Positions 1 through 15,235 of a stretch of 15,235 bases of DNA are shown one piece after another. The notes under the pieces are model-generated. The model was not told the DNA's origin and did not search any database. It saw only the letters and a list, made by a program, of their open reading frames with translations. Position numbers and translations under genes: made by a program. Position 1 is the first letter of the stretch, and each line of letters opens with the position of its first letter. The stretch comes from a virus, in IMG/VR virus record IMGVR_UViG_3300012352_000399, positions 1-15,235 of that record; one strand, 5' to 3'.

Positions 1-55
1 GTCATAACCAATATTCCATCTGGTCTATAGAATAGGTCTTTGGCATAGGGATATA
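1..55. repeat. 55-bp exact direct terminal repeat, copy 1 (identical to 15181..15235); circularisation overlap
   Basis: gtcataaccaatattccatctggtctatagaataggtctttggcatagggatata occurs at both window ends with no mismatch. 55 is a common assembler k-mer length, so this is probably an assembly overlap of a circular or concatemeric molecule. Confidence 0.95.
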
Positions 56-142
56 GTTTGTATTCTCCTGTGCCTGTGCTTATAAAGTCTCTTGGATCCA
101 CTAGTTCTGCCGTCCTTGCATTGTAGTATAAGTATACATGAA

Positions 143-172
143 CAAAGAAAAAAGCCCAATAGCTGGCGGGCT
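143..172 (-). terminator. Candidate intrinsic terminator closing the regulatory operon
   Basis: The minus strand reads AGCCCGCCAGCTATTGGGCT (AGCCC/GGGCT stem) followed by TTTTTCTTTG, 59 nt after the stop of the 107-aa ORF. The stem is short (5 bp plus G-U), so this is a weak to moderate call. Confidence 0.4.
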
Positions 173-230
173 ACTGAGCTTTAATCTTTACCTAGGGGTA
201 GGTTTTGTCATTTGGCAACGACAAATATAA

Positions 231-554
231 TTATAGCATTTTCTTCTGTACAAAGCTAGAGTTGAACTTCGTGTTTACTTTCTTTTCTTTCTTCACTGGA
301 GGATTAGGATCATAGAGATATACTGCTTCTCTCCAAGTCCAGAACTTATTCCTCTTCTTCTGAGCCATTTCGAATTCATCCATCCATAATAGAATCTCAG
401 CATCTAGTTGTTCTTGTGTTAGTTTAATCATATCTTCCATCTTGTGATTAGACCAAAAGGATTTAAGTAGTCCGTTTTCTTTTACTGTTTTACCTGTGGT
501 ATCTACCTTAGAATTATAGCTAACCCGCTTTTTTCCTGCGTCACTTCTTGCCAT
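231..554 (-). CDS. Hypothetical protein, 107 aa, last gene of the regulatory operon
   Basis: Co-oriented ORF with a 14-nt overlap on the upstream gene. It is Lys-rich at both ends with a W/F-rich centre (FWTWREAVYLYDPNPP). No motif recognised. Confidence 0.55.
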   Translation of the reverse strand: MARSDAGKKRVSYNSKVDTTGKTVKENGLLKSFWSNHKMEDMIKLTQEQLDAEILLWMDEFEMAQKKRNKFWTWREAVYLYDPNPPVKKEKKVNTKFNSSFVQKKML

Positions 555-933
555 TTAGCATTGCCTTTCGTCTGGCGTTATATGATCTGACTCTCCAACA
601 TGGTTTACAATATGTGTTCAATTTGTCAAAGGAGTTGGCTCTATGACCAAACTGGCTACGAGGCTTTTTAAGACCACAATCTTGGCAGACCTTAGAGTCT
701 ACATGGACTTTAGCATCAGAGGCCTTTAAAACCTCGTTGTAGGCCTTGTAGTAGGTACTGTAGCATTCTCTACACCATGCCTGTAGGCTATTGCCTACCT
801 TTTTGTTAAATTCTTGTGCTTCTTTAGTTGTGTCACACTTGCTGCAATATTTCACGATTCTTGTAATCTCCATATTCTTTAGTTTTAATCTTATGGCAAG
901 GTTTGCATAAGGTCTGTAGGTTATTTGGTTCAT
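541..933 (-). CDS. Cys-rich protein with two tandem zinc-ribbon modules (putative DNA-binding)
   Basis: Two copies of C-x2-C...F...C-x2-C are present: CSKCDTTKEAQEFNKKVGNSLQAWCRECY and CQDCGLKKPRSQFGHRANSFDKLNTYCKPCW. I recall this module type from the N-termini of many phage HNH/homing endonucleases. The start is uncertain: M1 at 933 overlaps the HNH gene by 101 nt, and M21 at 873 overlaps it by 41 nt. Confidence 0.6.
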   Translation of the reverse strand: MNQITYRPYANLAIRLKLKNMEITRIVKYCSKCDTTKEAQEFNKKVGNSLQAWCRECYSTYYKAYNEVLKASDAKVHVDSKVCQDCGLKKPRSQFGHRANSFDKLNTYCKPCWRVRSYNARRKAMLNGKK

Positions 934-1135
934 TATTACTTCTGTCCCCGTCGATATGATCTACATCTAATAGCTTCTTATCTAGTGGAACTGTAAGGCA
1001 TCTCTCACAATACCCCTTTTTAGCCTTCCGTGCCTGTCTACGGCAGTTTAAACAGCTAGACCTATACTGTCTAGTCCCTTTCTTGCTAATACCCTTTAAA
1101 GCGGCGTTTCTGCCGCATTTGCATTTAGGCCTCAT
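833..1135 (-). CDS. HNH endonuclease (zinc-finger HNH, packaging-associated type)
   Basis: A canonical motif is present: CERC...DVDHIDGDRSNNEPNNLQTLCKPCHKIKT (CxxC, DH, N, CxxCH). In the circular map it lies near terS/terL, as in cos phages that use an HNH partner for terminase. Confidence 0.85.
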   Translation of the reverse strand: MRPKCKCGRNAALKGISKKGTRQYRSSCLNCRRQARKAKKGYCERCLTVPLDKKLLDVDHIDGDRSNNEPNNLQTLCKPCHKIKTKEYGDYKNREILQQV

Positions 1136-1250
1136 TTGTCACCAACCATCCAACTGGGGCGGCGGCGGCGGTACACTCTTTACAGTGATCAAGGAAGCGA
1201 AGGTATTTCTTACAAGTGTTGCAAAAGTATATAGTTCCTTCTTTTACCAT
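1125..1250 (-). CDS. Unannotated 41-aa zinc-ribbon ORF (below the ORF-track size cut-off)
   Basis: Hand translation gives MVKEGTIYFCNTCKKYLRFLDHCKECTAAAAPVGWLVTNEA, with CxxC-x9-CxxC. Its ATG overlaps the stop of the upstream 118-aa gene (TCATGGTAA), and its stop overlaps the HNH start by 11 nt. It fills an otherwise unexplained 108-nt gap. Confidence 0.35.
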   Translation of the reverse strand: MVKEGTIYFCNTCKKYLRFLDHCKECTAAAAPVGWLVTNEA

Positions 1251-1600
1251 GACATTAACTCTTCTACTTGAATCAAAGAAAGATCAGTTGATTGTTTTGT
1301 ATTTATATTTGTATTTAATTTGTATTTAGGTGGTAATGTCATGCCGTAGGGTACGGCTTCAGGTACCGTAGGTTCGTAATGATTTGCCGCATCATAGTTT
1401 CTTGTCTGTTTTAGATAGCCAGCTTCTACTAATTCTTTCTTGGCAGTTCTGACTGTTCTTTCACATAATCCAGTTCCATCTGCTATTTGCTGATTAGTTG
1501 GTCTGGATGGATTGTATGAGGCAATTATCAATGCTACAATTCTAGCCTTGGTGCTTAGATTAGATTCTCTAATTAGGCGTAAGTACTGGAAGTAATCCAT
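1244..1600 (-). CDS. Winged helix-turn-helix protein (HTH_36 / DnaD-N-like; candidate replication initiator or transcription regulator)
   Basis: LSTKARIVALIIASYNPSRPTNQQIADGTGLCERTVRTAKKELVEAGYL is a typical wHTH segment. The gene has a strong SD (AAAGGAGAT) and is the first gene after a consensus promoter. Confidence 0.65.
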   Translation of the reverse strand: MDYFQYLRLIRESNLSTKARIVALIIASYNPSRPTNQQIADGTGLCERTVRTAKKELVEAGYLKQTRNYDAANHYEPTVPEAVPYGMTLPPKYKLNTNINTKQSTDLSLIQVEELMSW

Positions 1601-1625
1601 GTTATCTCCTTTCTGGTGAGATAAC
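1601..1625 (-). promoter_or_regulatory. Perfect 8-bp inverted repeat GTTATCTC-N9-GAGATAAC overlapping the RBS (operator and/or SD-sequestering hairpin)
   Basis: The minus strand reads GTTATCTCACCAGAAAGGAGATAAC followed directly by ATG. The right arm contains part of the AGGAG Shine-Dalgarno. The repeat starts about 4 nt after the -10 hexamer. Confidence 0.5.
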
Positions 1626-1628
1626 TAA

Positions 1629-1657
1629 ATTATAATGTATTATTTCTCTTATGTCAA
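1629..1657 (-). promoter_or_regulatory. Consensus sigma70-type promoter (TTGACA-17 nt-TATAAT)
   Basis: The minus strand reads TTGACA (1657..1652), then a 17-nt spacer TAAGAGAAATAATACAT, then TATAAT (1634..1629). It sits in the 57-nt gap between the 67-aa ORF stop and the wHTH gene. Both hexamers match consensus perfectly. Confidence 0.65.
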
Positions 1658-1861
1658 CTACTTGTCTTTGTTCATGAAATGCACATATATGTCATGCTGA
1701 CGCTGTTCAAGTCTATTTAACTGATCTTTCATAGATGAGCCTGAATTGGGGACTAATTCGGACAAATAGTGCTTTACTAACCATCTAACCATACCTATAA
1801 GTTGTACTTGTATTAATAGGATCCCGCCCACTATTGATAGAATCATCTGTATATTGCTCAT
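1658..1861 (-). CDS. Small membrane protein, holin-like candidate (67 aa)
   Basis: It has one N-terminal hydrophobic helix (ILSIVGGILLIQVQLIGMV) and a charged C-terminal tail. Its start shares an ATGA overlap with the upstream gene, and it is the last gene of the structural operon. No adjacent endolysin was recognised. Confidence 0.45.
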   Translation of the reverse strand: MSNIQMILSIVGGILLIQVQLIGMVRWLVKHYLSELVPNSGSSMKDQLNRLEQRQHDIYVHFMNKDK

Positions 1862-2574
1862 GGTCTAATTATCTTTCCATTCCTAGCTGCCGCTTGCTGA
1901 TAAGCTGAGTAACCTGGCATTCTATCTAATCCAGATGCAGATCCACCAAATGCTTTTGTCTTTCCTTTTCCAAATCTTTTAATAAGAAATTGCCTATTTT
2001 TTTCTCTGTTAAATCTATTGTCTGCAGTTGTTCCACCAGTTCTGTAACCGTTTCTAGCTGCCGCCGCTTGGTAATTAAAAAGTGCAGTTGCGGTATTCGA
2101 ATATACATTTCTTGGTGTTGCTAAAAATCTTCCAGAACCAAACATTAATCTATCTACAGCATTTTCCATAAACGATTGATGACAAGCATCACGAAGTTCA
2201 TCAAGCATTTCTGCAACTTCATCAATTATTAAGTTAATAGCATTGTAATATATATCGCCAAGCTCATCTTGCATAACATTGACGAACTCATCTGGATCAT
2301 ATTCTTCTTGTGTTAATTCACAATAATCTAGTGCCTTTGGAGAAAATTCATCTACTATAAGAGTTGTTTGTCCAGCATTACCAGCTTGATCTTCAGCCCA
2401 AGAAAGTATGTCATTGACTCCTTCTTCCCAGGATTGTTCATCAAATTGAGGAGCAAGGTCTAATGCATCTTCAGCACCAAAACCTCTTCTGCCTCTTACC
2501 CTTGAAAGATTTCTAAGACCATTAGCTCTGTATGAACTTCTCATGGCCCTTCTGAGAAGGAATCTAATTAACAC
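1858..2574 (-). CDS. Hypothetical virion-module protein, 238 aa, with segregated charge blocks
   Basis: It has an Arg-rich N-terminus, a strongly acidic centre (EDQAG...EEYDPDEF...DEVAEMLDELRD) and a basic Gly-rich C-terminus with a duplicated Q-AAARNG motif. The annotated start is GTG at 2574, overlapping the upstream stop by 1 nt. An alternative ATG lies at 2544. Confidence 0.55.
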   Translation of the reverse strand: MLIRFLLRRAMRSSYRANGLRNLSRVRGRRGFGAEDALDLAPQFDEQSWEEGVNDILSWAEDQAGNAGQTTLIVDEFSPKALDYCELTQEEYDPDEFVNVMQDELGDIYYNAINLIIDEVAEMLDELRDACHQSFMENAVDRLMFGSGRFLATPRNVYSNTATALFNYQAAAARNGYRTGGTTADNRFNREKNRQFLIKRFGKGKTKAFGGSASGLDRMPGYSAYQQAAARNGKIIRP

Positions 2575-2933
2575 TAAATATCACCAGATATTATTTTTGC
2601 TTTATATTTAAATCCTTCAACTATGCCAAGAGCATTTACAACTGGCTGTGTAGACTTGATTTCCCATGTGCCATCAACATAAATTTCATTTCCATTTCTA
2701 TCTAAAATGTTTGATAGATACCCAGCTTTTTGTAACTTGGAGTTAGTTAATACAACTATATCGCCAATAAATGTTGTGCTTAAAGCAAGTATTATCTGCT
2801 CAGGAACTTCAGTATAAACATTTTCTGTTACTGATCCGTCTGCAGATGTTACCTTTGTATACCCATAGTAGTCAGCAGTATAATTATATTTAGCTCTTCT
2901 AAGCGTATCAAACAACATTATATTTTCTTCCAA
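2574..2933 (-). CDS. Possible head-closure / head-tail joining protein (119 aa)
   Basis: Size, position directly after the connector gene, and a beta-rich C-terminus (GNEIYVDGTWEIKSTQPV) are compatible with SPP1 gp16-like head-closure proteins. The call rests on synteny and weak pattern only. Confidence 0.4.
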   Translation of the reverse strand: MEENIMLFDTLRRAKYNYTADYYGYTKVTSADGSVTENVYTEVPEQIILALSTTFIGDIVVLTNSKLQKAGYLSNILDRNGNEIYVDGTWEIKSTQPVVNALGIVEGFKYKAKIISGDI

Positions 2934-3307
2934 TCAACATTGTTTGGCCACTGGAATATCTTACCAGTTCTGTAGCTTCTTGATCTATTCCAAGATAAGC
3001 CGTTTGCAGCAATGATTGCTAGTGGTGACATAAATGGTGACATCATTCTAGTATCAAAGTTAACCATGGCATCTGTCTGCCCCTGGCTTGTTAAAGCTGC
3101 TTGCTTAAAAACAATATCCTCATTCTCAAGCATGTAGGCTGTTTGATAAGAAGTAATCTTATCTAGCAATATTAAATCGGATGGAGCTTCAATATCAATT
3201 TCATCTCTTCCAATATAGATTTCTACGATTGCTTGGGCTCTCATAATTAATGGGAGTGTTACATCGTATCCAGTATATTCTTTTACGCTATTAATTGTAC
3301 TAAACAT
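2918..3307 (-). CDS. Head-tail connector / adaptor (gp6-like, Phage_connect_1-type)
   Basis: The N-terminal pattern INSVKEYTGYDVTLPLIMRAQAIVEIYIGRDEI resembles the usual gp6-like signature (...aA...ie.y.gr). Size is about 130 aa, and the gene overlaps its neighbours. Confidence 0.55.
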   Translation of the reverse strand: MFSTINSVKEYTGYDVTLPLIMRAQAIVEIYIGRDEIDIEAPSDLILLDKITSYQTAYMLENEDIVFKQAALTSQGQTDAMVNFDTRMMSPFMSPLAIIAANGLSWNRSRSYRTGKIFQWPNNVDWKKI

Positions 3308-3642
3308 TATCTGAATCTCCTTCCTAGTTCACGCACTCTTATAGTGTGTGTTGTTGTAAAGTCTAACTTACCTGTCCCGCTCAATTTAAGCTGAAACACA
3401 TAGTCTCCAGGGTATTCAAAAAGGCTGCGGTCTGTTGGCCACTCAAACACAATTGTTCCAAGATCTTTGGCAGCCGTATTAAGAGTTGCACCTGTGAGGC
3501 TTATTTCTTCATTTCTTGATCCTAATAGAACTGCTTCAATTGTAGTATAGGCAGAGAGGTTAAAATCATTTCCATCCTGGTCCTTTACTTGAATCGAAAG
3601 AGGTCTTGCAGGAATTTGGTCTATCCAGTATTGACTAATCAT
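3307..3642 (-). CDS. Small beta-sandwich structural protein (Ig-like / BppU_N-like, tentative)
   Basis: LSIQVKDQDGNDFNLSAYTTIEAVLL...GTIVFEWP...GDYVFQLKL follows the alternating-strand pattern common in phage Ig-like fibre or baseplate accessory domains. Its start shares an ATGA overlap with the stop of the giant ORF. Confidence 0.45.
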   Translation of the reverse strand: MISQYWIDQIPARPLSIQVKDQDGNDFNLSAYTTIEAVLLGSRNEEISLTGATLNTAAKDLGTIVFEWPTDRSLFEYPGDYVFQLKLSGTGKLDFTTTHTIRVRELGRRFR

Positions 3643-6600
3643 TTGATTACGTCCTCTCTTATATATAGTATTGGGTCTACATGTATTATTTGTAGAACAA
3701 CTTGATCTTCTGAAGCAACATTGGATCTGCTATTTGCAAACATTCCTGCATTAGCTACCATTGTTGGTGCTGCAATTGTTGAGCCTGGCTTCACAATTGT
3801 AGCATTTGCTTCCATAGGTAGTACAAGTATCTTTGTTATTCCACTAGTAAAGTTTGTCTCAGGTAATGTTGCAGTTGCAACCATAGATTGAGCTGCAAAG
3901 TCATTAAACTTATCTACTATTTCTGTAGCATTTGGCATTTCTGCTGTTGCTGCAAAAGCCTGTGGTCTAACAACAGTTCCCTCAAGAAATTCTCTATTAG
4001 ATAACCAACGGAATCCTCTTGTAGGCATTGATGGCACTTCAAATGATACTGTTGGGTATTGCCATGAATATGTACTAGCAAAGAACACACTGCCTTGAGG
4101 TACAGATCTAAATGATAATCCGCCATTCTTATTTATTTTTCTTACCTTAACTGTTTCTTTTTGTACGCCAGCTTTATTAAAGTTAGTGTCTAATTCAAAA
4201 TCACCGCTTCTTTGTTGCAAAAGATGCATACCGTTTAATGACCAATATGGAGTTTCTGCTTCAACAAAATCTTGAGCAAGCAGTTCATCTCTTGTTTCTA
4301 AAGTAATGATTCCATTTTCATAAGCGTAATTTACCCAGTAAACACTTGTAAATTCAACTACACCACTTTCTAAACATTTGTTTATTTCTTCAGTAAAGTT
4401 TACATATATCTTTCCGCCAACTTGTGTTCCATCAAGAACATCACCTGGCTCAATAATAATAGACTGAGCATAATTTCTATAAGGATTTTCAATTAAATCC
4501 AATCCTCTACGAACAGTATTAGCAAAGGCTGTAATAATCTTTCCAGCTTTTACATTTTCAAATGGTGTAGCAAGATATCCAGATCTATTATTATTAGCTC
4601 GTGCACCAGTTGTTGAAATAAGAAACTCATCTCCAACAGCTAAAGCATCTTTGTGTTCATATTTTGCAAATTGTCTATCTGCCCCGCCCCAACGGTACTC
4701 ATCTGTAGATACCCAATATGCTGCTTGAGTTTTAACTAATGCTGGATAATCAGTGATATCTGGATGAGTATTAACAATTCTAGTTCTATTGTTCTTCCAT
4801 GTATCTTCCCATCCAAGAGGTTCATCGTATTCTGGTGGGACTGGAAGATCAGCAGCACCTTCAATGCCAAACATCTGTGTTGGTGAATAAGGATCGCTGT
4901 AATTACCTTGACCTACATTGTCATCCATGTCTGGAACTGTCTCAACACGATCTACAATCTTAAGATCAAGAGCAAGCTGAGCATTTGCAACCATTAAAGA
5001 TATACCAGTATCTACAGCTGCACGAAGACTCTTTACAAAGTCTTCAAATATCTTTGATTCTCTTAAATTAAAGTATGCGTCAACAACTTCAGCTCCAGTA
5101 AATGCATCCTTTTCGTTAGGATCGTTTGGATAGTTCTTGAACATAATCATGTCAAATTTAGATAAATCAATATCATTAATTAAATCAATATATCTTGGAG
5201 CATCTGTCAAAGGATCTCTAAATGTGCGACGCTTATTAACTAAAGCGTATGGAGCATTTGTTGTATTTTGAGACTGACTTACAAATTGTATAAAGTTAGT
5301 TTTTCCAATATTTTCAACTCCACCATAAGCTTCAACCTTAACAAGATCAGAAACCCACTTACCAGTAATATCTACTGGAAATACATCCCAGCCTTCAAAT
5401 TCTTGTGGAGGTGCTGTAAAGTAATCAAGAGTTGTAAGAGTATCTGGAGATTCATCACTTGTGTATGGACCAGTACCAAACGGTGTTCCAGTTTGCGGAG
5501 ATGATGTAGGCCAGAAGTAAAGCATTAATGCTCTTCCTCTATTTCCTGCAGCCTTTGATTCTTGTGCAATTTCTGCTGTTGCAGTAGCTGGCTCAGCATG
5601 AACTGGTTCATATTTAATAGATGCTGTGTAATGATCTGTTACTTCATCTGACTCAACAAAGAATGCTGCATCGTATGACCAAGCAGATGTTTCAAAGTCT
5701 GACTGCCATCTTGTATTTGAGTGGTTTGATCCAATAATGTATGGACGAATTCCAGCTCCTGATGCAAAATTGCTATCTGCAAAGAACTGAATGTCTAGCT
5801 GACCATCAATCCAGAACTGTACACGACCATCAAATCCGTACTGGATAATAATGTGGTGCCATGCTCCATCATCTATTCTCTTATTCCCATAAGCTGTAAC
5901 AAATGAGTATTTAGCAATACTTGTGTTATCTGGGTGAGCAAATATTCTAGCTTCGCCGATTCCCTGTGTAGCACGAGTTGCATACAACTTACCATCAATT
6001 AAACCAATTGAAGATGTTGCGCTTTGGTATCCAATAAAGCTTTGCTGGAATCCCTGAGCCATAACCTGATTGGCTTTTGTCGATTTAAATGTAAACTCAA
6101 GGCTGTATCCGTTATTTGAAACGTAATTGTTTTCAGGAATTGAGAATTGTATGTTTCTAAATCTAACTGCTTTTCTTTCGTAATCATCAAATGTTCCAAC
6201 CTCAAGAACAGGTGTTGGGGTAGCTGTTTGAAATGCATTTGTTGCAACTGCATATTGAGTATCAGTGCTTGTATCTGTTGGTGTATCTGTAACAATGCTA
6301 CGAGGCAAGTTATTAATAATCTTATTTGTATTTGCCCCGCCAATACTTTGTGTAACATCATCAAATAGCTTTAAGAATGCTGAGGCTGAAGATGTTCCAG
6401 CACTGCCAGCTAAGTTATCAGTCTTCCATCTTTCGCCATTAACTACAGAGTGCTGTAGGTATAGCTTCTGATACCAGATATCGTCTGTAATTAATTTGTA
6501 AGCAGGTGGGCTTACAAATATTGCTTGGACTGGAATTGATTGTGCAACAATTAAAGCGCCCAGGGTAGATGATATTGCTGGATCAACCATCTCTGCAGTA

Positions 6601-9215: not shown

Positions 9216-9246
9216 AAAAATAGGCTGCTGGCGTTATGCCGCAGCC
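9216..9246 (-). terminator. Intrinsic-terminator-like hairpin plus T-run immediately upstream of the giant ORF
   Basis: The minus strand reads GGCTGCGGC-ATAAC-GCC(A)GCAGCC followed by TATTTTT and then the giant-ORF ATG. The stem is 9 bp and GC-rich with one bulge and a 5-nt loop. The stop codon of the 66-aa ORF lies in the loop. Confidence 0.5.
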
Positions 9247-9434
9247 CGTACTCCAATTCTGAATGATTCTGGGTTGATTGTTGAAATGCTGTGTCCGCCT
9301 ATAGAAATGATTGGAGCAAAGGAGAGGTTGGAGACTACTGGAGTAAGATCACCAGAAAGAGACTCTACAGTAATTTGGACTACGACTAGTTCGCAACTTG
9401 CGATTAGTGCGCCAACCTCTACCTTTGCATCCAT
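9234..9434 (-). CDS. Small hypothetical protein, 66 aa (capsid-module ORF)
   Basis: It is co-oriented, fills the gap between the 143-aa gene and the giant ORF, and has AAGG upstream overlapping the previous stop. It shares the higher G+C of the capsid block. A plus-strand ORF also overlaps here, so coding status is unsure. Confidence 0.4.
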   Translation of the reverse strand: MDAKVEVGALIASCELVVVQITVESLSGDLTPVVSNLSFAPIISIGGHSISTINPESFRIGVRAAA

Positions 9435-9445
9435 GCGTAATTACC

Positions 9446-9877
9446 TTACGCTACAGTGATTCGAACAATACCAGTCGAATCCCATGTGATTGTGAAGTTA
9501 CCATTGGTTGAAGACTGGTCTGAACCGAAGTCTACGTATCCAATGAGAGCTGATGTGCTTGATGTGCCTGTTGAATCATATACAACTGCATAACGAGCTG
9601 TGATAGTTGATGAAGACCATGTAACATCTGCAGCGTCAAGAACGATTACGTTTGTGCCTGAATCGTATGTTGCTGTCTTAGATGCTAGTGTGATTCCACC
9701 AGCTGTGTAACCTGTACCTGTTACTTCGTATGTAGAAACATCGTTGAAGTAATCATGTGTATCTTGGTTAGGTGTGTAGGATGAAGTAAGTAGAGCAACC
9801 TTGATTGTGTCAGAGTCGAAATCTACTTCCTTGTTGAGTGCCTTAAGTAGGAAGTTACCGTATAGTTTAGAAGCCAT
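9446..9877 (-). CDS. Conserved-looking structural protein, 143 aa (capsid decoration, head fibre or other virion protein; function unassigned)
   Basis: It lies directly after the major capsid gene and has an AGGGGGA SD. The composition is beta-rich and Thr/Ser/Gly-rich (YEVTGTGYTAGGITLASKTATYDSGTNVIVLDAADVTW), typical of virion surface proteins. Confidence 0.6.
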   Translation of the reverse strand: MASKLYGNFLLKALNKEVDFDSDTIKVALLTSSYTPNQDTHDYFNDVSTYEVTGTGYTAGGITLASKTATYDSGTNVIVLDAADVTWSSSTITARYAVVYDSTGTSSTSALIGYVDFGSDQSSTNGNFTITWDSTGIVRITVA

Positions 9878-9891
9878 TAGTCATTTCCCCC

Positions 9892-10797
9892 TTACGCTGA
9901 AGTCTTGCGAACGATTGCGAACGCTTCAGGAGCCGCTACTGCGAATCCACGACGAACACGAGTCTTTAGCAAGACGCCATCCTTTGAAAAGTCTGCATCA
10001 CGAGAGATTGCAGATTCTACTGTGCTACGAACACCGTTGATCATCATTTGGCGGTTACCAACGATAAGCAATGGGTCTCCTGTTGGAGCTGATGTAGCTG
10101 CAGCTGAAGTTGCTGCACCGTATGAGATTACTAGTGGGTATCCGAATAATGATCCTGGACGAGCACCTAGTGGATCTGGAAGAACAAGGTTTCCACCTGT
10201 TGTTTCCATCTGACGAATGAGGTTAAGCATCTTTGGGTGAACGATAACAACTGTGTTAGCTGCATCGAAGTACTTTGACTCTTCTGCCTTGCCTAGAGCG
10301 TTAGAAATATCTGCGAACTCTAGATCTCCTGCAGTTGAAATGATGTTTGCACCTGAGTTGTACTGTGAAACTGAATAGTAAACAGAGTTGAACGGCTGTC
10401 CGTCATCTCCGTCGCCTACAGCTGTTACACCAAGGCATGCATTGTCATACTTACGAGCCCACTGTGAAGCCCATTCTCTCTTGTATGTGTTGAGTGTGTC
10501 AACGAGTGAATCGTTAACATCTTCCTCTGAAATGTTGAAAATCTGTGCGTACTTCTTAGCTGTAAGAACTACCTCATCCAGAGTTGTATCTGAATTAGGA
10601 ATATCTACGCCTTCTGCTACGATTGTTGGTGCATCTGATACGAAGCGTGGAACGCCCTTTGTACGAGATGACATATTCTCACGACGAGCAAATGCTTCTA
10701 CTACAGAGTTAGCTGTTGTTGCTTGAATAGCAACTGAGCCTTTTTCCTCTGGAATATAGCCATTACCTTCTGTGAGATCTGTGCGACCTGCGGCCAT
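9892..10797 (-). CDS. Major capsid protein, HK97 fold (Phage_capsid family)
   Basis: It is 301 aa with a strong SD (AAAGGAGATTAACATG) and follows the scaffold gene. The segment TLDEVVLTAKKYAQIFNISEEDVNDSLVD matches the characteristic HK97-family pattern (..L.a.K.a....is.El..Ds). Confidence 0.85.
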   Translation of the reverse strand: MAAGRTDLTEGNGYIPEEKGSVAIQATTANSVVEAFARRENMSSRTKGVPRFVSDAPTIVAEGVDIPNSDTTLDEVVLTAKKYAQIFNISEEDVNDSLVDTLNTYKREWASQWARKYDNACLGVTAVGDGDDGQPFNSVYYSVSQYNSGANIISTAGDLEFADISNALGKAEESKYFDAANTVVIVHPKMLNLIRQMETTGGNLVLPDPLGARPGSLFGYPLVISYGAATSAAATSAPTGDPLLIVGNRQMMINGVRSTVESAISRDADFSKDGVLLKTRVRRGFAVAAPEAFAIVRKTSA

Positions 10798-10820
10798 GTT
10801 AATCTCCTTTTAATTAGTTA

Positions 10821-10902
10821 ATTTGGGTTTTTGAACATATAATCGTCCGAATATATTAATCGCAACCCAAATGTCCATTTGGAGCTGCATAAGACAATTA
10901 TA
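10821..10902 (-). promoter_or_regulatory. Structured leader upstream of the capsid gene, with a perfect TATAAT hexamer and mutually exclusive hairpins
   Basis: On the minus strand, TATAAT (10902..10897) lies 10 nt after the scaffold stop, with only a poor -35. Downstream, CCAAAT-GGAC-ATTTGG forms a 6-bp hairpin, and ATTTGGGTT pairs with AACCCAAAT 34 nt further on (9 bp). The two structures share the ATTTGG segment. Confidence 0.3.
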
Positions 10903-10911
10903 CCGTACTTA

Positions 10912-11361
10912 TTATTTCTTTAAAACCATTTTTGCTTGCAAATCTGATGCAGATTGAGGAACTTCTAATGAAGCAGCTACTCCTGAGTCAGCTTTACCAG
11001 CTACAATGAATTTTGGATCGAATAATTCTGGGAAGTCTGTCTTTAATGTGCTGATTTGCTCATCAAGACCTGCAACCTCAAAATCTTCAGTTAAAGATAA
11101 TGCATCCATCTTAATATACTTATTTAGTTTATCTCCATGGGCAATACCTAATGATGCAAGATGTTTATTAACATGCTCCATCACTAACTTTGACTGGAAT
11201 TGGGAAATCTTGGAGACTGATTCATTTACCTGTGCCTCCAAGGCTTCCTTTTCCAATCTAAACTTCTTTGCCTCCGCCTTCGCTTTATCTAAAGCATCTA
11301 AGACGGCTTTAGGATCACGAATCTCGTCAGATGTACCTTCTACTTGATTCTGTTCTTCCAT
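10912..11361 (-). CDS. Scaffolding protein (149 aa, coiled-coil)
   Basis: It sits between the portal and capsid genes. It is acidic and Lys/Glu/Ala-rich with heptad-like character (DALDKAKAEAKKFRLEKEALEAQVNESVSKISQFQSKL). Confidence 0.7.
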   Translation of the reverse strand: MEEQNQVEGTSDEIRDPKAVLDALDKAKAEAKKFRLEKEALEAQVNESVSKISQFQSKLVMEHVNKHLASLGIAHGDKLNKYIKMDALSLTEDFEVAGLDEQISTLKTDFPELFDPKFIVAGKADSGVAASLEVPQSASDLQAKMVLKK

Positions 11362-11362
11362 T

Positions 11363-12769
11363 TTATTCTCCTGTATTGTTTTGCTCAGCGGCTACCTGTT
11401 GTAGTGCCAAGTTGTTTGTATTTAATCCAGTTCCACGCAAAGCAACCTCTGTTGAGTTTGCATTGTCTGTTGTATTTGCCATTGCTTCATCAGCAATAAT
11501 CTTTGCAATTTCTGGGTCATATCCAAGCTCAAGAAGGATCTGCTCCAAAGGAACTCCTACTGACTTCTTGCGAACTGCGATATCCCATTGGTCTAGAGAA
11601 TCGATTGATTCTGGAGACTTCCAATCAATATCTACATCAGCAACAATGCCTTCGATCTTAAGCATAAACTTAAATAGATCTCTCCATGTTGAACCAAGAG
11701 CAAGCTGGCGGTTAAGAACCTTCTTGAATAATGGTGCTTCAGCTACACGCAAAGCTTGTCCTGATGGAAGGTATGTTGTGCTTGAGAAGTAATGAACTGG
11801 AGTTGATGTAATTGCAGCCATGTCTGAAACAAACTCATTAACTGGGTTTGTAAATGTTGATGGGTCTGCTGCTGGGAATTGTCCAACAGATTGAACTCCT
11901 TGCAAGTACCAGAGTTGTCCTGGACCATTTTGCAATGCTCCAATGTTTTCTCTAGCTGTATCATCTTCTGAGAAGTCATCTATTTCAGATGAGCTTCCAC
12001 CATTTGATAATGCATAACGCTGTGGAGCACCCTGATAGTCTACTGTCATCATGTGAGTTGATATCAGCTTGTTGATAGCATCCTGTGGGCCAAATGCATC
12101 AGCATGCTCTGGTCTTCCGTATGGCTTATTTGTTCTGAAATGGAAAACTGGAATTTCATTCCAAGGATTAACCACAGTTTCAACCAAAGTAAGATTTGGC
12201 AGCCCATTTAGAGAATCAAGTTCACCTAGACCCTCATACTTTTCAATTCTATCTGTGTAATACATATTGATCTTGATAACTTTGCGGTCAGCGGCATCTG
12301 TAATCTGCCACATCTTTGTTGCAAATGACTTAACACGAGGGTTCTCCTGATCATATACAAGAGTAGTAGTCATTGGTGAGTTGTAATCTATTGCTAGATT
12401 CCCGTCCATATCTGGCCATACAATTGCATAGCAATCGCCATAAACAAGTGCATTTCTATGAATTTCGTTAATATCAAGCTTCAAATCTGTCTGTTCCCAG
12501 ATTTTATTAATATATGCGTCTCCTGCTGGGCTAGTTGTCTCAACTTGCTCAATTTCTAGACGATTGTGTACTGCATCTACTACAGTCTTGCTAAAATTGA
12601 ATCTAAACGGAGTAACTCCCGAAAATCTTGACTGTTCGTTTCTAAATAATCTGTACCAGCGTTGATGAGTAAATACTTCATCATTTGCGCCTTCGTAATA
12701 CGCTTCAGCGACCATATATCGATCTCTTTTGTTAATTATCTGGTCTAAAGCTAATTTAATATCTGACAT
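11363..12769 (-). CDS. Portal protein (SPP1 gp6-like)
   Basis: It is 468 aa, lies immediately after terL, and has a strong SD (AAGGAGATAAAATG). The N-terminal AEAYYEGANDEVF motif and overall layout are typical of gp6-like portals. Confidence 0.85.
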   Translation of the reverse strand: MSDIKLALDQIINKRDRYMVAEAYYEGANDEVFTHQRWYRLFRNEQSRFSGVTPFRFNFSKTVVDAVHNRLEIEQVETTSPAGDAYINKIWEQTDLKLDINEIHRNALVYGDCYAIVWPDMDGNLAIDYNSPMTTTLVYDQENPRVKSFATKMWQITDAADRKVIKINMYYTDRIEKYEGLGELDSLNGLPNLTLVETVVNPWNEIPVFHFRTNKPYGRPEHADAFGPQDAINKLISTHMMTVDYQGAPQRYALSNGGSSSEIDDFSEDDTARENIGALQNGPGQLWYLQGVQSVGQFPAADPSTFTNPVNEFVSDMAAITSTPVHYFSSTTYLPSGQALRVAEAPLFKKVLNRQLALGSTWRDLFKFMLKIEGIVADVDIDWKSPESIDSLDQWDIAVRKKSVGVPLEQILLELGYDPEIAKIIADEAMANTTDNANSTEVALRGTGLNTNNLALQQVAAEQNNTGE

Positions 12770-12770
12770 T

Positions 12771-14261
12771 TTATCTCCTTAAGTAATTTAATTGCTTTAC
12801 AAATACTTTTGGAGTACTGTTATCCAAGAAGTATAGAATTCCTGACACTACTGCGTCCAGTACGTCATCGTGGCTTACCTTTGGGAATGACCACATTTGT
12901 TCTTCTAGAGCTGGGAAGTGTTGTGTATGTCTAACTTTGCCTTGCTGATAGAAGTTCAAAGCTTTTCCTGCACGGATTTGCTTTGATACGGATTGTCGAA
13001 TTGATTTGTAGCGAACTGGTATATGTTTAAACACATCTTGCCACAAATCGCCTCCCTGGTTTGTTTCTACGTATATAATACCAGGATTGTATGTTTCAAC
13101 CAAGGCTGAAACTCTGTCTGCTAGTTCAGATGGAGATACTTTAAGTTGAAATGCATCTCTTACATAAATGTTTCCATCTTCACCTCTGCTCAATACAGCA
13201 ATACCTGTATAGTCAGAAACTTTATTCTTTGTAACTGCAGGGTCAATAGATATGATCGTATTGCCGTAGTCCTCTTGATTTTCAATAATTACATCTTCAT
13301 ATGTCCAGAAATTACCATCAAGGTTCACAGGTTTGTTCATATAGTTCTTTGCGAAGTCTCTGAGGTGTCTTTGGCTGTTCAACCAGTCTAGAGGCCACTT
13401 CTCAGGCCATACAGAGCGTTCTGAGCCATCTTCAGCTGTCATAATGGCTGGATAGTAGTGTACGGCCACATTCTGGTCTGTAATCCACTCCAGTGCCTTA
13501 TCACGCTGGCCCTCAGAATGCTTTCTAAACTCATCCATCATAGAGTTTGGCATGGTTGTAGTACCCACAATAATCATGCGGGCATATATATTCATTGGGG
13601 CAATGTCGTCAAATACTGTTCTACGCTGCTGTCCTGCTTGGTATTCGGAGTAGTTCTTTTCACCTTTTTCGATATCATCAAGAATAATGAGGTCAGGGCG
13701 TTGGCCAAATACCTTTTTACCCAGTGAGTTAGTATCAATACCATTAGCGTCGAAGATAAAATCATTTGATTGAATAATACGCCAAGCGTTTGCTGCAAGG
13801 GAACGCCCAGTTGAACCGACAATCTTAGGTGTGCATAGTTCTGGGTAATCTGCTTTGAGATATTCATTAGTTTCCAATTCATTTTTAAAAGTAAGTAAGT
13901 GCGTCTCAGCTTGAGAAGCAGCATCTGAAAAAGCAGCCACAAATTTAATGTGACCATGGGCGGCGGCCCACATAGGTAGAATCAAAAAGATCCAGGTTGA
14001 CTTGCCACATTCTCTAGGAGCAATAAATGCATCTCTATTTTGCTTAGGAGAAGTTGGCTTATTGATCCAAGTCTTTCCATATTCAGCCAAATCCCAGTGA
14101 AATTCCGAAAGAGTGAGTTCATCTTCCATATTCTTTAAGTGATGTGGCAAATAAGTAAGCGCAAAGAGCATTGGATCATATTTAGTAAGTTCCCGCCTAC
14201 CTTCTGAATATGCCATCAATTCTGGATTAATGTCTTCCATGTATTTTGTTATATCATACAT
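12771..14261 (-). CDS. terL: Terminase large subunit
   Basis: It is 496 aa with a Walker A-like APRECGKST (aa 81-89) and Walker B LIILDDIE. The C-terminal nuclease-like region contains conserved acidic residues (ISIDPA..., HDDVLDAV). Confidence 0.92.
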   Translation of the reverse strand: MYDITKYMEDINPELMAYSEGRRELTKYDPMLFALTYLPHHLKNMEDELTLSEFHWDLAEYGKTWINKPTSPKQNRDAFIAPRECGKSTWIFLILPMWAAAHGHIKFVAAFSDAASQAETHLLTFKNELETNEYLKADYPELCTPKIVGSTGRSLAANAWRIIQSNDFIFDANGIDTNSLGKKVFGQRPDLIILDDIEKGEKNYSEYQAGQQRRTVFDDIAPMNIYARMIIVGTTTMPNSMMDEFRKHSEGQRDKALEWITDQNVAVHYYPAIMTAEDGSERSVWPEKWPLDWLNSQRHLRDFAKNYMNKPVNLDGNFWTYEDVIIENQEDYGNTIISIDPAVTKNKVSDYTGIAVLSRGEDGNIYVRDAFQLKVSPSELADRVSALVETYNPGIIYVETNQGGDLWQDVFKHIPVRYKSIRQSVSKQIRAGKALNFYQQGKVRHTQHFPALEEQMWSFPKVSHDDVLDAVVSGILYFLDNSTPKVFVKQLNYLRR

Positions 14262-14358
14262 TTTTACTGTCCAAATTTATTCTCAGTGGCAAAATTTATA
14301 TTTTTAAATTTAAGTACATTTCGGGTGGTCTGCATGCAATTGTCGACATATCTACTTA

Positions 14359-14829
14359 TCAATTAATAACCTTTAATGATTGCTTAATAGACTCTGATCT
14401 CATCTTGGCTTCATTAAGCATATCTACGATTGCTAAGTCTGAGCCATCCTTTGATCTATTTTCATTGATATTAGTAGACTTACCTTCAATTAGATTGATT
14501 GTCTGTATAGCCTTATGTATAGCTGTAGATAACTTATTAATATCTTCTGCAAGTAGATCTTCTTCATATAGCTTCTCTATAGATCTATCTAATACTGCCT
14601 GTGCCGCCAATACTTTCTCTTTATCATTGTAGAATATAGCCAAATCCTTAGCCATTACCGCCAAAGAGTTAGCTGTTGGCATATCTATATTTCTCTGTGC
14701 ATAGAATCTCTTAGCTGTATGATAACTCTTAGGATATCCTAATGTTCTCATAGCTGGACCAATTCCCATTTCATTGGCCATTTCTATAAATTCGCTTACT
14801 TGTTCTTCTGTGAATACTGGATATCCCAT
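14359..14829 (-). CDS. terS: Terminase small subunit (putative)
   Basis: It is 156 aa and lies directly upstream of terL. It has an N-terminal HTH-like segment (EEQVSEFIEMANEMGIGPAMRTLGYPKSYHTAKRF), a coiled-coil-like remainder, and a TAGGAGT SD. Confidence 0.6.
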   Translation of the reverse strand: MGYPVFTEEQVSEFIEMANEMGIGPAMRTLGYPKSYHTAKRFYAQRNIDMPTANSLAVMAKDLAIFYNDKEKVLAAQAVLDRSIEKLYEEDLLAEDINKLSTAIHKAIQTINLIEGKSTNINENRSKDGSDLAIVDMLNEAKMRSESIKQSLKVIN

Positions 14830-14840
14830 GTTAAACTCCT

Positions 14841-14856
14841 ATTTTTATATATATAT
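14841..14856. repeat. AT-only tract with (TA)5 microsatellite
   Basis: atttttatatatatat sits just upstream of the terS SD and about 50-80 bp from the paired DnaA boxes. Confidence 0.7.
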
Positions 14857-14898
14857 CGCCATTTACGGAGGCGTTCCTGAATCGTAATACTAATATAT

Positions 14899-15075
14899 CT
14901 AAATCTCTGTGGATAAGTCTTTATTGCTTGTGGATAACTTCTTCTTCCATTTGGGATCTTGCTCCCATTTCTTTTTCTTTACTGATCTGGAAGCTACTTT
15001 ATCAAGGTTAGTTTCTCTTCTTATCCCATGTTTATTAGTATCTATTACTACTCTACTATTGGACTTTTGAGTCAT
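14899..15075 (-). CDS. Unannotated 58-aa highly basic ORF (below the ORF-track cut-off)
   Basis: Hand translation gives MTQKSNSRVVIDTNKHGIRRETNLDKVASRSVKKKKWEQDPKWKKKLSTSNKDLSTEI. AGGAG and GAGG elements precede the ATG. It is co-oriented with all other genes. Its 3' end contains both DnaA-box 9-mers, each read as Leu-Ser-Thr. Confidence 0.3.
   Translation of the reverse strand: MTQKSNSRVVIDTNKHGIRRETNLDKVASRSVKKKKWEQDPKWKKKLSTSNKDLSTEI
14908..14937 (-). promoter_or_regulatory. Two perfect DnaA-box 9-mers (TTATCCACA) in direct orientation, 21 bp centre to centre
   Basis: The plus strand shows TGTGGATAA at 14908..14916 and 14929..14937, which is TTATCCACA on the minus strand. I found no other exact copy in the window. 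Confidence 0.5.
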
Positions 15076-15185
15076 TCCGCCTCATCTCCTATTGTTCGGT
15101 CAAGGAATCGCCTCATTTGAGGACTTGCTTTGAAGGAGAAGCTGAACTCTTGTGTATCTGTCTCATTGAACATCTCTATTGTCAT
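15072..15185 (-). CDS. Possible 37-aa acidic ORF spanning the circularisation junction
   Basis: Hand translation gives MTIEMFNETDTQEFSFSFKASPQMRRFLDRTIGDEAE. Its TGA overlaps the ATG of the 58-aa ORF (GAATGAC). The SD is weak, so it could be non-coding. Confidence 0.2.
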   Translation of the reverse strand: MTIEMFNETDTQEFSFSFKASPQMRRFLDRTIGDEAE

Positions 15186-15235
15186 AACCAATATTCCATC
15201 TGGTCTATAGAATAGGTCTTTGGCATAGGGATATA
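15181..15235. repeat. 55-bp exact direct terminal repeat, copy 2 (identical to 1..55)
   Basis: Identical to 1..55 when compared base by base. Confidence 0.95.

Follow-up and report, generated by a model that had tools for sequence, protein, structure and literature searches.

An uncultured 15.2-kb viral genome read as a distant member of the MiniFlayer-type lineage of capsid-encoding mini-phages

The IMG/VR virus record IMGVR_UViG_3300012352_000399 was analysed here over its 15,235 nucleotides (G+C 38.4%), a stretch that we call the window. From its gene order and protein similarities we firmly assign the window to the MiniFlayer-type lineage of capsid-encoding mini-phages, as an uncultured and distant member. 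To our knowledge MiniFlayer, reported in 2023 from one soil isolate, is the only virulent bacterial satellite virus described that has its own capsid and rides on a helper. Eleven consecutive genes of the window, from the small terminase subunit (TerS) to gp11, are collinear with those of MiniFlayer and encode proteins of near-identical length; nine of them were detected by BLASTP at 26-71% amino acid identity, and gp7 and gp11 were recognised at profile level. MiniFlayer (OQ357865), whose helper is the Streptomyces phage MindFlayer, is a helper-dependent, non-integrating satellite virus with short fibres that bind the helper neck (deCarvalho et al. 2023, PMC10690885).

The likeness to MiniFlayer extends to the plan of the whole genome. 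In both, all genes lie on one strand of a small genome (17.4 kb in MiniFlayer, 15.2 kb in the window) and follow the order TerS, large terminase subunit (TerL), portal, scaffold, major capsid protein (MCP), gp6, gp7, a giant protein, gp9, adaptor and gp11; HNH and zinc-finger nucleases are encoded downstream, and both are devoid of an integrase, primase, polymerase and tail tube. The two are nevertheless far apart, with amino acid identities of 26-49% except for gp6 (71%), G+C contents of 47% in MiniFlayer and 38% in the window, and origins in soil as opposed to water-type metagenomes. The giant protein measures 1,376 aa in MiniFlayer but 1,858 aa in the window, where it has at least five LamG domains, and the downstream third of the window carries an HTH_36 protein, w12, w13, w17 and w18/w18b in place of MiniFlayer gp12-gp25.

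A sequence-only reading that preceded this work had described a full head module of terminase, portal, scaffold and HK97-type capsid, and this description was borne out by Pfam and PHROGs matches, with TerS recognised through its homology to the TerS proteins of satellites (Table 1). The three marks of the Caudoviricetes are present, namely an HK97-fold MCP (PF05065), a portal (PF05133) and a large terminase (PF17289). The TerL protein, w02, is 46% identical to MiniFlayer TerL and 52-54% identical to that of the Streptomyces satellite Mulchroom, and among the 404 phage records matched by w02 the best two were Mulchroom (14.8 kb) and MiniFlayer (17.4 kb). The portal, w03, is 41% identical to that of MiniFlayer. 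Mulchroom TerL itself (L082, 661-2565) is 634 aa long, and the window protein aligns to its residues 3-253 and 393-634; the insertion of about 140 aa between them may be intein-like, and a match of similar length comes from a locus in a Streptomyces chromosome (L094).

Between the capsid gene and the connector genes lies the module w06-w09, which we infer to build a long lectin-type fibre, because in unrelated phages, too, a small conserved adaptor is found paired with a very large adhesin of lectin-like type. The w06 family is present in 420 phage records, and in all five autonomous-phage contexts inspected a w06-type gene lies directly upstream of a gene for a larger protein of minor-tail or lectin-like type. 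In phages of Gordonia, Rhodococcus and Mycobacterium the w06-type gene stands at the far end of the tail genes; the larger gene that follows it in GMA1, REQ3, Sixama and WIVsmall is annotated as a minor tail protein in GMA1 and WIVsmall and as hypothetical in REQ3 and Sixama. A weak match also links w06 to Bxb1 gp31, the 'tail wing arm' that joins a base protein to a distal 'brush'. In Caulobacter phage phiCbK, gp75 is 55% identical to w06 and sits in the head module, and the next gene (L181, 759-9649) encodes gp76, a 2,799-aa ConA-lectin protein that is the proposed flagellum-binding head filament (Gill et al.). The phiCbK gp75-gp76 and Bxb1 gp30/gp31/gp33 cassettes resemble that of the window in that the gene for a w06-type protein of some 140 aa immediately precedes one for a very large ConA/LamG lectin-like protein; unlike the window module, they are accessory adhesins of large autonomous siphoviruses, and between the large partners no sequence similarity was detected apart from their common lectin fold class. 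These arrangements suggest that phiCbK gp75 may be the anchor of the head filament and that w06-type genes may mark adhesin cassettes generally. The w06 family is 55-71% identical across the aquatic mini-phage, the Streptomyces satellite, Gordonia and Mycobacterium siphoviruses and phiCbK, a conservation far above that of the capsid proteins.

The giant protein of this module, w08, occupies 37% of the genome. At least five LamG/ConA-like jelly-roll domains cover approximately aa 1-1200, four of them detectable with Pfam and the fifth taken from an AlphaFold model. In the AlphaFold2 (AF2) model of the C-terminal 859 aa (pLDDT 71), the LamG fold matches laminin LG domains and the lectin-like domains with which clostridial neurotoxins bind their receptors; an ordered domain extends over approximately aa 1230-1740, and a low-confidence tail begins at about aa 1742. 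The last 650 or so residues (nt 3642-5615) have no Pfam match, even at E<=1, and for some 550 ordered residues the structural matches in the PDB and BFVD were confined to the protein's own family. The C-terminal half of w08 is 26% identical to MiniFlayer gp8 (6e-58). Searches of PDB sequences with w08, w09, w10 and w11 gave no significant match. Across the 26 IMG/VR loci of at least 12 kb that made up our gene-set comparison, hereafter the near-complete relatives, w08 is the fastest-evolving gene, with a median identity of 36% as against 86% for TerL, 87% for w06 and 75% for w09. In one concatemeric relative (L095, 3528-8906; 18574-20684) adjacent units carry different w08 alleles, of 1,792 and 1,928 aa. 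Such rapid evolution, and the differing alleles in neighbouring units, are as expected of a recognition protein. The head-to-tail contigs L095, L098 and L067 may be real concatemers or may be chimeras assembled from strains that co-exist; in both cases the microdiversity is strong and focused on w08. Another contig, L044 (17.7 kb), starts and ends inside the giant gene (1-2372; ~12,100-17,713), which would give a copy of about 2,600 aa if it is a single unit.

The 11-gene architecture of MiniFlayer defines a much larger lineage, made up of several clades that are all about 15 kb in size. In IMG/VR we found 361 TerL relatives of the window, many of them on contigs of about 15 kb, the best being 96-97% identical (L001-L003, 96%; L102, 97%), and in a set of 1.84 billion representatives the gp9/w09 family falls into 83 clusters at 50% identity. 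All 26 near-complete relatives carry the collinear gene set of the window. The divergent locus L191 (w09 38% and portal 55% identical) is a 15.1-kb contig with the same gene order and a giant gene of 1,812 aa, and L109 (GC 46%) is a fragment that stands nearer to MiniFlayer. A large protein database contains more than 120 w06 variants at >=91% identity, nearly all on contigs of no more than 17 kb. Differences in genome size between family members seem to follow from how long the giant gene is. The relatives of the window come from water-type metagenomes, and those already in GenBank and UniProt bear the name 'uncultured Caudovirales phage UFOVP...', a series which we take to come from a freshwater virome study. 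Members of the lineage have thus been known hitherto as anonymous 'uncultured Caudovirales' contigs, and what is new here is the link to MiniFlayer; we found no literature that links such contigs to MiniFlayer or describes an aquatic MiniFlayer-like lineage. The nearest homologues of the head, packaging and w06 proteins are mostly from phages of Actinomycetota, and we treat an Actinomycetota host, suggested by protein similarity, as a lead and not as a result. The genomes of Streptomyces typically have a G+C content of about 70%. Since MiniFlayer (47%) lies far below this value, the 38% G+C of the window is uninformative about its host.

The sequence-only reading had proposed either a poorly described lineage of miniature phages or a capsid-encoding satellite; both are compatible with our results, and the closest cultured relatives, MiniFlayer and Mulchroom, are capsid-encoding satellites. 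By analogy with MiniFlayer we lean, with modest confidence, towards a virulent, helper-dependent satellite virus of the same type. Because the properties that define a satellite are behavioural, the sequence cannot decide the lifestyle. Helper dependence is proposed because no polymerase, primase, helicase, lysin or DNA-delivery tube was found. Searches of the window proteins with Pfam, PHROGs, NCBIfam and PADLOC returned no polymerase, primase, helicase, helicase loader, endolysin, tail tube, tape measure or nozzle, and when an overlooked lysin or enzyme of replication was sought (with Pfam at E<=1 in the C-terminus of w08 and in the small proteins, and with NCBIfam and PADLOC), only the HNH protein came up. 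The replication-related content revealed by the four HMM libraries consists of the 118-aa HTH_36 protein and two small nucleases. None of the 26 near-complete relatives, nor L191, has an extra integrase, lysin, polymerase or tail-tube gene.

A possible life cycle for such a satellite can be outlined as follows. Host RNA polymerase, on which we suppose the genome relies because its promoters are of host type, would transcribe a short early unit from promoter P1 through w14-w17 to a terminator, and a separate promoter beyond that terminator would drive the long packaging and structural operon. The genome's own terminase would then package it into a small capsid (that of MiniFlayer measures 42 nm for 17.4 kb), and the virion would bear w06-w09 fibres instead of a tail tube. 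A co-infecting helper phage would supply replication and/or lysis and/or entry, and the fibre module may bind the helper virion, as in MiniFlayer, which would bring both into one cell. Inside the capsid the DNA would probably be a linear molecule whose ends repeat about 1 kb of sequence, TerS included, a repeat that assemblers collapse into a 'circle'.

Several points weigh against helper dependence. Lifestyle does not follow from structural homology, and downstream of the structural block the homology to MiniFlayer is limited to the zinc-finger nucleases. The window has no homologue of the membrane protein that MiniFlayer and Mulchroom have in common with the helper, its proteins gave no match to the first 100 kb of MindFlayer, and neither a helper candidate nor a host emerged from the analysis. 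Host-type promoters together with the winged-helix protein w14 make host-driven replication conceivable, w13 could belong to an unrecognised lysis system, and about 550 ordered residues of w08, along with w07, w11, w12, w17, w18 and w18b, could hide the missing activities. The membrane proteins in question, MiniFlayer gp19 and its Mulchroom counterpart, are 28-34% identical to MindFlayer gp32 (L189, 14047-14946 and 18097-19065).

The same points lend weight to the strongest rival, namely that the window is an autonomous virulent miniature phage of the same stock as MiniFlayer, which we regard as quite possible but not as the probable outcome. Here w14 would recruit the host replisome, lysis would be carried out by unrecognised proteins (w13, others or a domain of w08), and w06-w09 with the C-terminal part of w08 would make up a short, podovirus-like tail for direct binding to the host. 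The conservation of near-consensus host sigma-70 promoters throughout the family, the replication-initiator type of HTH_36 protein (w14) and the transmembrane protein w13 are consistent with autonomy, as are the 550 or so ordered residues of w08 that have no fold relative outside the family in the PDB or BFVD. The great abundance and microdiversity of the lineage, as seen in its TerL relatives and w06 variants, need no helper to explain them, autonomous phages use the w06-type protein as an ordinary accessory of the tail or of head filaments, and no gene is held in common with the first 100 kb of the known helper MindFlayer. However, no tailed phage is known to lyse its host without a muralytic enzyme, and neither the four HMM libraries nor structure revealed one; the window encodes no polymerase, primase, helicase or helicase loader, w14 being only a 118-aa DNA-binding domain, and no nozzle, tube or tape measure. 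The sole cultured genome of this architecture, MiniFlayer, cannot grow alone (PMC10690885), and other 11-17-kb 'phages' have recently proved to be satellites. Should the window prove autonomous, it would rank with the smallest phages that package by terminase, and it would have no known lysin.

Other very small phages and satellites offer partial parallels. The Acinetobacter satellite phage Aci01-2-Phanie, which we liken to the window from the literature only, is very small, virulent and podovirus-like and attaches to its helper for simultaneous infection (PMC12822802). P4 and the Salmonella phage 'Astrid'/astrithr (~11.6 kb, named as the smallest tailed phages), likewise compared from the literature only, also lie near the lower size limit of tailed phages. 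The window differs from P4-like satellites in having its own MCP and scaffold and in encoding neither primase nor integrase. As to the hallmarks of phi29-like phages (Salasmaviridae), HMM searches found no polymerase of any kind, and no search was aimed at a terminal protein.

The helper-dependent, virulent reading, if true, has consequences beyond this genome. Were the lifestyle conserved in the lineage, satellite-helper pairs would make up a sizeable and overlooked share of aquatic viromes, the way of life of MiniFlayer would be an ecological strategy widespread in natural waters, and 15-kb 'complete phages' would be wrongly entered as independent predators when viruses and hosts are modelled. 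A further use of the lineage is as a compact, alignable system in which the minimal packaged dsDNA virion, the diversification of giant lectin fibres and the sequence-based recognition of helper dependence can be studied. A fuller scenario, which we offer tentatively and regard as rather doubtful in its entirety, would have globally abundant and microdiverse aquatic virulent satellites hitch-hiking by means of a giant, rapidly evolving multi-lectin fibre, possibly on helper glycans, with the switch from early to late expression made by a family-specific small RNA or terminator. MindFlayer encodes a glycosyltransferase beside its structural genes, and by analogy a glycan ligand on the helper virion is conceivable, although this is speculation.

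A temperate or integrative satellite of the type of capsid-forming phage-inducible chromosomal islands (cf-PICIs), Mulchroom or Ando, caught in its excised circular form and hijacking helper tails, is very improbable. The Streptomyces satellites Mulchroom (OQ784832) and Ando (PMC13587820) do resemble the window in having homologous TerS, TerL, portal, scaffold, MCP and adaptor (28-54% identity in this core for Mulchroom), genomes of 13-15 kb and a small capsid of their own; Mulchroom-like TerL genes are found inside Streptomyces chromosomes, and an excised element would give a closed circular assembly. The cf-PICIs, which can be likened to the window by their mode of working but not by sequence, also have their own capsid and terminase and are small, tail-less elements. 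However, Mulchroom and Ando are temperate, with a tyrosine integrase, Lsr2 and regulators, are without the gp6-gp9 fibre module that the window carries, and use siphovirus tails made by the helper. The cf-PICIs reside in the chromosome as islands equipped with an integrase, regulators and a replication module, and their tailless capsids take helper tails; the window is not integrated, has none of these modules and bears fibres of its own. Mulchroom has a stopper that resembles that of its helper; w11 has no similarity to the stoppers of Mulchroom or MindFlayer and instead matches MiniFlayer gp11. No integrase, excisionase or repressor was found in the window or in the 26 near-complete relatives, nor any att-like repeat; internal repeats and iterons were also searched for in the window, and the terminal 55 nt was the only repeat found. 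No contig has host flanks, and 185,579 species genomes contained no integrated copy. The only close match in that scan (L086, RHCX01000049.1) is an 11,008-nt stand-alone contig, with a TerL 78% identical, in a metagenome-assembled genome (MAG) of a Nitrososphaeria archaeon; this is most likely mis-binning through low G+C and coverage and not a host signal.

The completeness of the window rests on several observations. The exact 55-nt end overlap, from which the sequence-only reading had deduced a 15,180-bp unit, was confirmed, and the junction at 15180/1 is crossed by an independent Logan assembly (L183, run ERR3489832) that is identical to the window (100.000% over 9,962 nt, 0 gaps) and likewise by L182 (SRR25160503), which is 90% identical. 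The open reading frame (ORF) that spans the junction, w18, is kept in 23 of the 26 near-complete relatives. Three relatives close on themselves through overlaps of 114-123 nt at different breakpoints, giving units of 14,793, 14,912 and 15,059 bp, and relative contigs of 24-34 kb are head-to-tail repeats of the ~15-kb unit with no host genes at their ends. Oversized contigs (17.7-34 kb) were considered as evidence of host flanks or of a larger genome, and this was rejected, since they are concatemers or contigs cut within a longer giant gene. The window is a complete unit, closed or terminally redundant. We prefer this wording to 'circular' because MiniFlayer and Mulchroom are linear, with direct terminal repeats of 1.06 kb and 1.61 kb that contain TerS; a linear genome that is circularly permuted, or one whose terminal repeat has been collapsed, would give the same assembly as a circle. 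It is hardly credible that the window arose through faulty assembly, or that it is part of a larger phage genome in which a 55-nt repeat produced a chance closure, for although 55 nt is a common k-mer length of assemblers, the independent assembly, the other breakpoints, the concatemers and the constancy of the gene set at ~15 kb across clades, with contigs bearing w06 variants almost never longer than 17 kb, all speak against it. The integrative and artefact explanations are essentially excluded.

Most other parts of the sequence-only reading stood up as well. The claim of a complete genome agrees with the recurrence of one gene set, always at about 15 kb, in the 26 near-complete relatives and L191. 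All credible genes do lie on one strand: the unit has 20 ORFs, all on the minus strand, with a coding density of 96.6%, and includes two small conserved ORFs (w14b and w18b) added to the 18 genes of the initial list. The overlaps it had noted between genes were all located, ATGA at w08/w09, w12/w13 and w18/w18b and ATGGTAA at w14/w14b, with longer ones at w10/w11, w16/w17 and w15/w16, and w09/w10 overlap through TAATG; ribosome-binding sites of the AGGAG type precede most starts. Host flanks and high nucleotide identity to a classified phage, either of which it had named as counting against its claim, were both absent, the former from every contig, the longer contigs being concatemers, and the latter from 50,697 phage records and 72,556 plasmids, where the window had no nucleotide match. 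Its description of the genome as circular and tailed-phage-like held in part: closure, an adaptor and a fibre module were found, but a recognisable tail tube, tape measure and nozzle were not.

Table 1. Coordinates of genes and other features in the window. Gene products are named by similarity.
Feature	Coordinates	Strand	Description	Evidence or remark
Terminal overlap	1..55 = 15181-15235		exact 55-nt identity	closes 15,180-bp unit
Second promoter and conserved leader	95..159	-	-35 inside 3' arm of terminator; -10 TATACT at 131-136	leader 95-121 into w18
Promoter and three-hairpin element	140..252	-	promoter 230-252 overlaps w17 stop; element of ~85 nt at 140-222	intrinsic terminator 144-182
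w17	231..554	-	107 aa	kept in 22/26 relatives
w16	541..933	-	double zinc-finger protein, endonuclease VII / Lar type, 130 aa	phrog_5558 1e-13, phrog_2633 1e-10
w15	833..1135	-	HNH endonuclease, 100 aa	PF01844 1e-6; phrog_144 4e-14
w14b	1125..1250	-	41 aa	ATGGTAA overlap on w14 stop
w14	1244..1600	-	winged-helix protein (HTH_36), 118 aa	PF13730 8e-10
P1	1629..1657	-	perfect sigma-70 promoter, TTGACA-17-TATAAT	12/12 match; 28 nt upstream of w14
w13	1658..1861	-	67 aa, one N-terminal transmembrane helix	hydropathy 2.27 over residues 1-29; phrog_9869 2e-9
w12	1858..2574	-	238 aa, hypervariable, GNxGQ motif	all-alpha bundle in AF2 model
w11	2574..2933	-	119 aa, MiniFlayer gp11 homologue (neck/connector position)	hhalign 91% over 97 columns
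w10	2918..3307	-	head-to-tail adaptor, 129 aa	46% to MiniFlayer gp10, 36% to Mulchroom adaptor; hhalign 99.95% and 98.8%
w09	3307..3642	-	111 aa, homologue of MiniFlayer gp9 (annotated 'tail fiber')	49%, 1e-32; hhalign 99.95%
w08	3639..9215	-	1,858 aa, proposed lectin-like attachment fibre	PF13385 5e-31 (4 stretches), PF02210 4e-23
w07	9234..9434	-	66 aa, positional equivalent of MiniFlayer gp7	hhalign E 5e-4 over 58 columns, weak
w06	9446..9877	-	143 aa, proposed adaptor/'arm' for distal adhesin	71% to MiniFlayer gp6; phrog_644 6e-46
w05	9892..10797	-	HK97-fold major capsid protein, 301 aa	PF05065 1e-24; 44% to MiniFlayer MCP
w04	10912..11361	-	scaffolding protein, 149 aa	PF06810 3e-8; 35% to MiniFlayer scaffold
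w03	11363..12769	-	portal, 468 aa, SPP1 gp6-like	PF05133 1e-24; phrog_104 9e-64; 41-43% to satellite portals
w02	12771..14261	-	large terminase subunit, 496 aa	PF17289 (Terminase_6C) 6e-14; phrog_38 8e-74
w01	14359..14829	-	small terminase subunit, 156 aa	33% to MiniFlayer TerS (4e-23), 28% to Mulchroom TerS; same position
w18b	14899..15075	-	58 aa, very basic, IDTNKHGIRRETNLD core	ATGA overlap with w18 stop
w18	15072..15235, on to position 101 of unit	-	69 aa, spans junction	kept in 23/26 relatives

The expression signals of the window are concentrated at two sites. Promoter P1 recurs at the same place, with a match of at least 11/12, in 18 relatives; this conservation is unusually strong for a promoter, and the proteins of these genomes differ by 15-60%. 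The gap between w17 and w18 has an identical layout in all 22 relatives that cover it, in which a promoter that overlaps the stop of w17 is followed by approximately 85-110 nt of small hairpins, a GC-rich intrinsic terminator, a second -10 with its -35 on the terminator's 3' arm, and a conserved leader into w18. The -10 of the second promoter is conserved in position in every one of these relatives, and seven of the nine pairs of the terminator stem show compensatory changes. The three-hairpin element of the window folds at -33.1 kcal/mol (z = -7.0) and has no match in Rfam; a loop motif of the UUGCCAA type occurs in 18 of 23 sequences, as against about 5 in shuffles, and is carried on stems of differing sequence. 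No complementary target for this loop was found in the genome. The three-hairpin element may serve as a small RNA or an attenuator peculiar to the family, and/or end transcription of the w14-w17 operon. Searches for RNA genes in the window found no tRNA, and no Rfam family at gathering or permissive thresholds.

Among the genes downstream of the structural block, w14 resembles phage replication-initiator PHROGs in nothing but their N-terminal DNA-binding part (for instance phrog_270, 4e-11, positions 34-104 of 383), and we predict it to be a regulator or an origin-binding domain without the enzymatic part. The only holin-like candidate is w13, as judged by its single predicted membrane helix. 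The AF2 model of w12, built from a 29-sequence alignment, has a pLDDT of 72.6 with a core above 90 and disordered basic and glycine-rich tails, and Foldseek found no structural neighbour with E<1. We considered w12 as a possible lysin and rejected this, since it is an alpha-helical bundle with no structural match. In relatives the w12 slot holds versions of 114-250 aa that share the GNxGQ motif, and the idea that these alternative ORFs are swapped-in enzymes was likewise rejected, as they are divergent homologues with a shared motif. The longer form of the motif, GNxGQ...(L/I)(V/I), is kept in L014, L017, L018, L020, L029, L051, L052, L062 and L073.

The zinc-finger protein w16 matches the endonuclease VII of Mulchroom (hhalign 95%), and w07 is kept in 18 of the 26 near-complete relatives. 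Searches of the HMM libraries gave no family match for w17. The slot of w14b holds in relatives a conserved ORF of 57-65 aa, which has only a C-terminal P(V/I)GW..NE motif in common with it. ORFs 47-84% identical to w18b occur in seven relatives, and gene calling in relatives also picks the ORF up; an apparent conserved non-coding motif in the gap between w18 and TerS was rejected as such, being the coding core of w18b. Some relatives have in this gap a small ORF of the KEYKxGxLHSGK type, which the window does not have.

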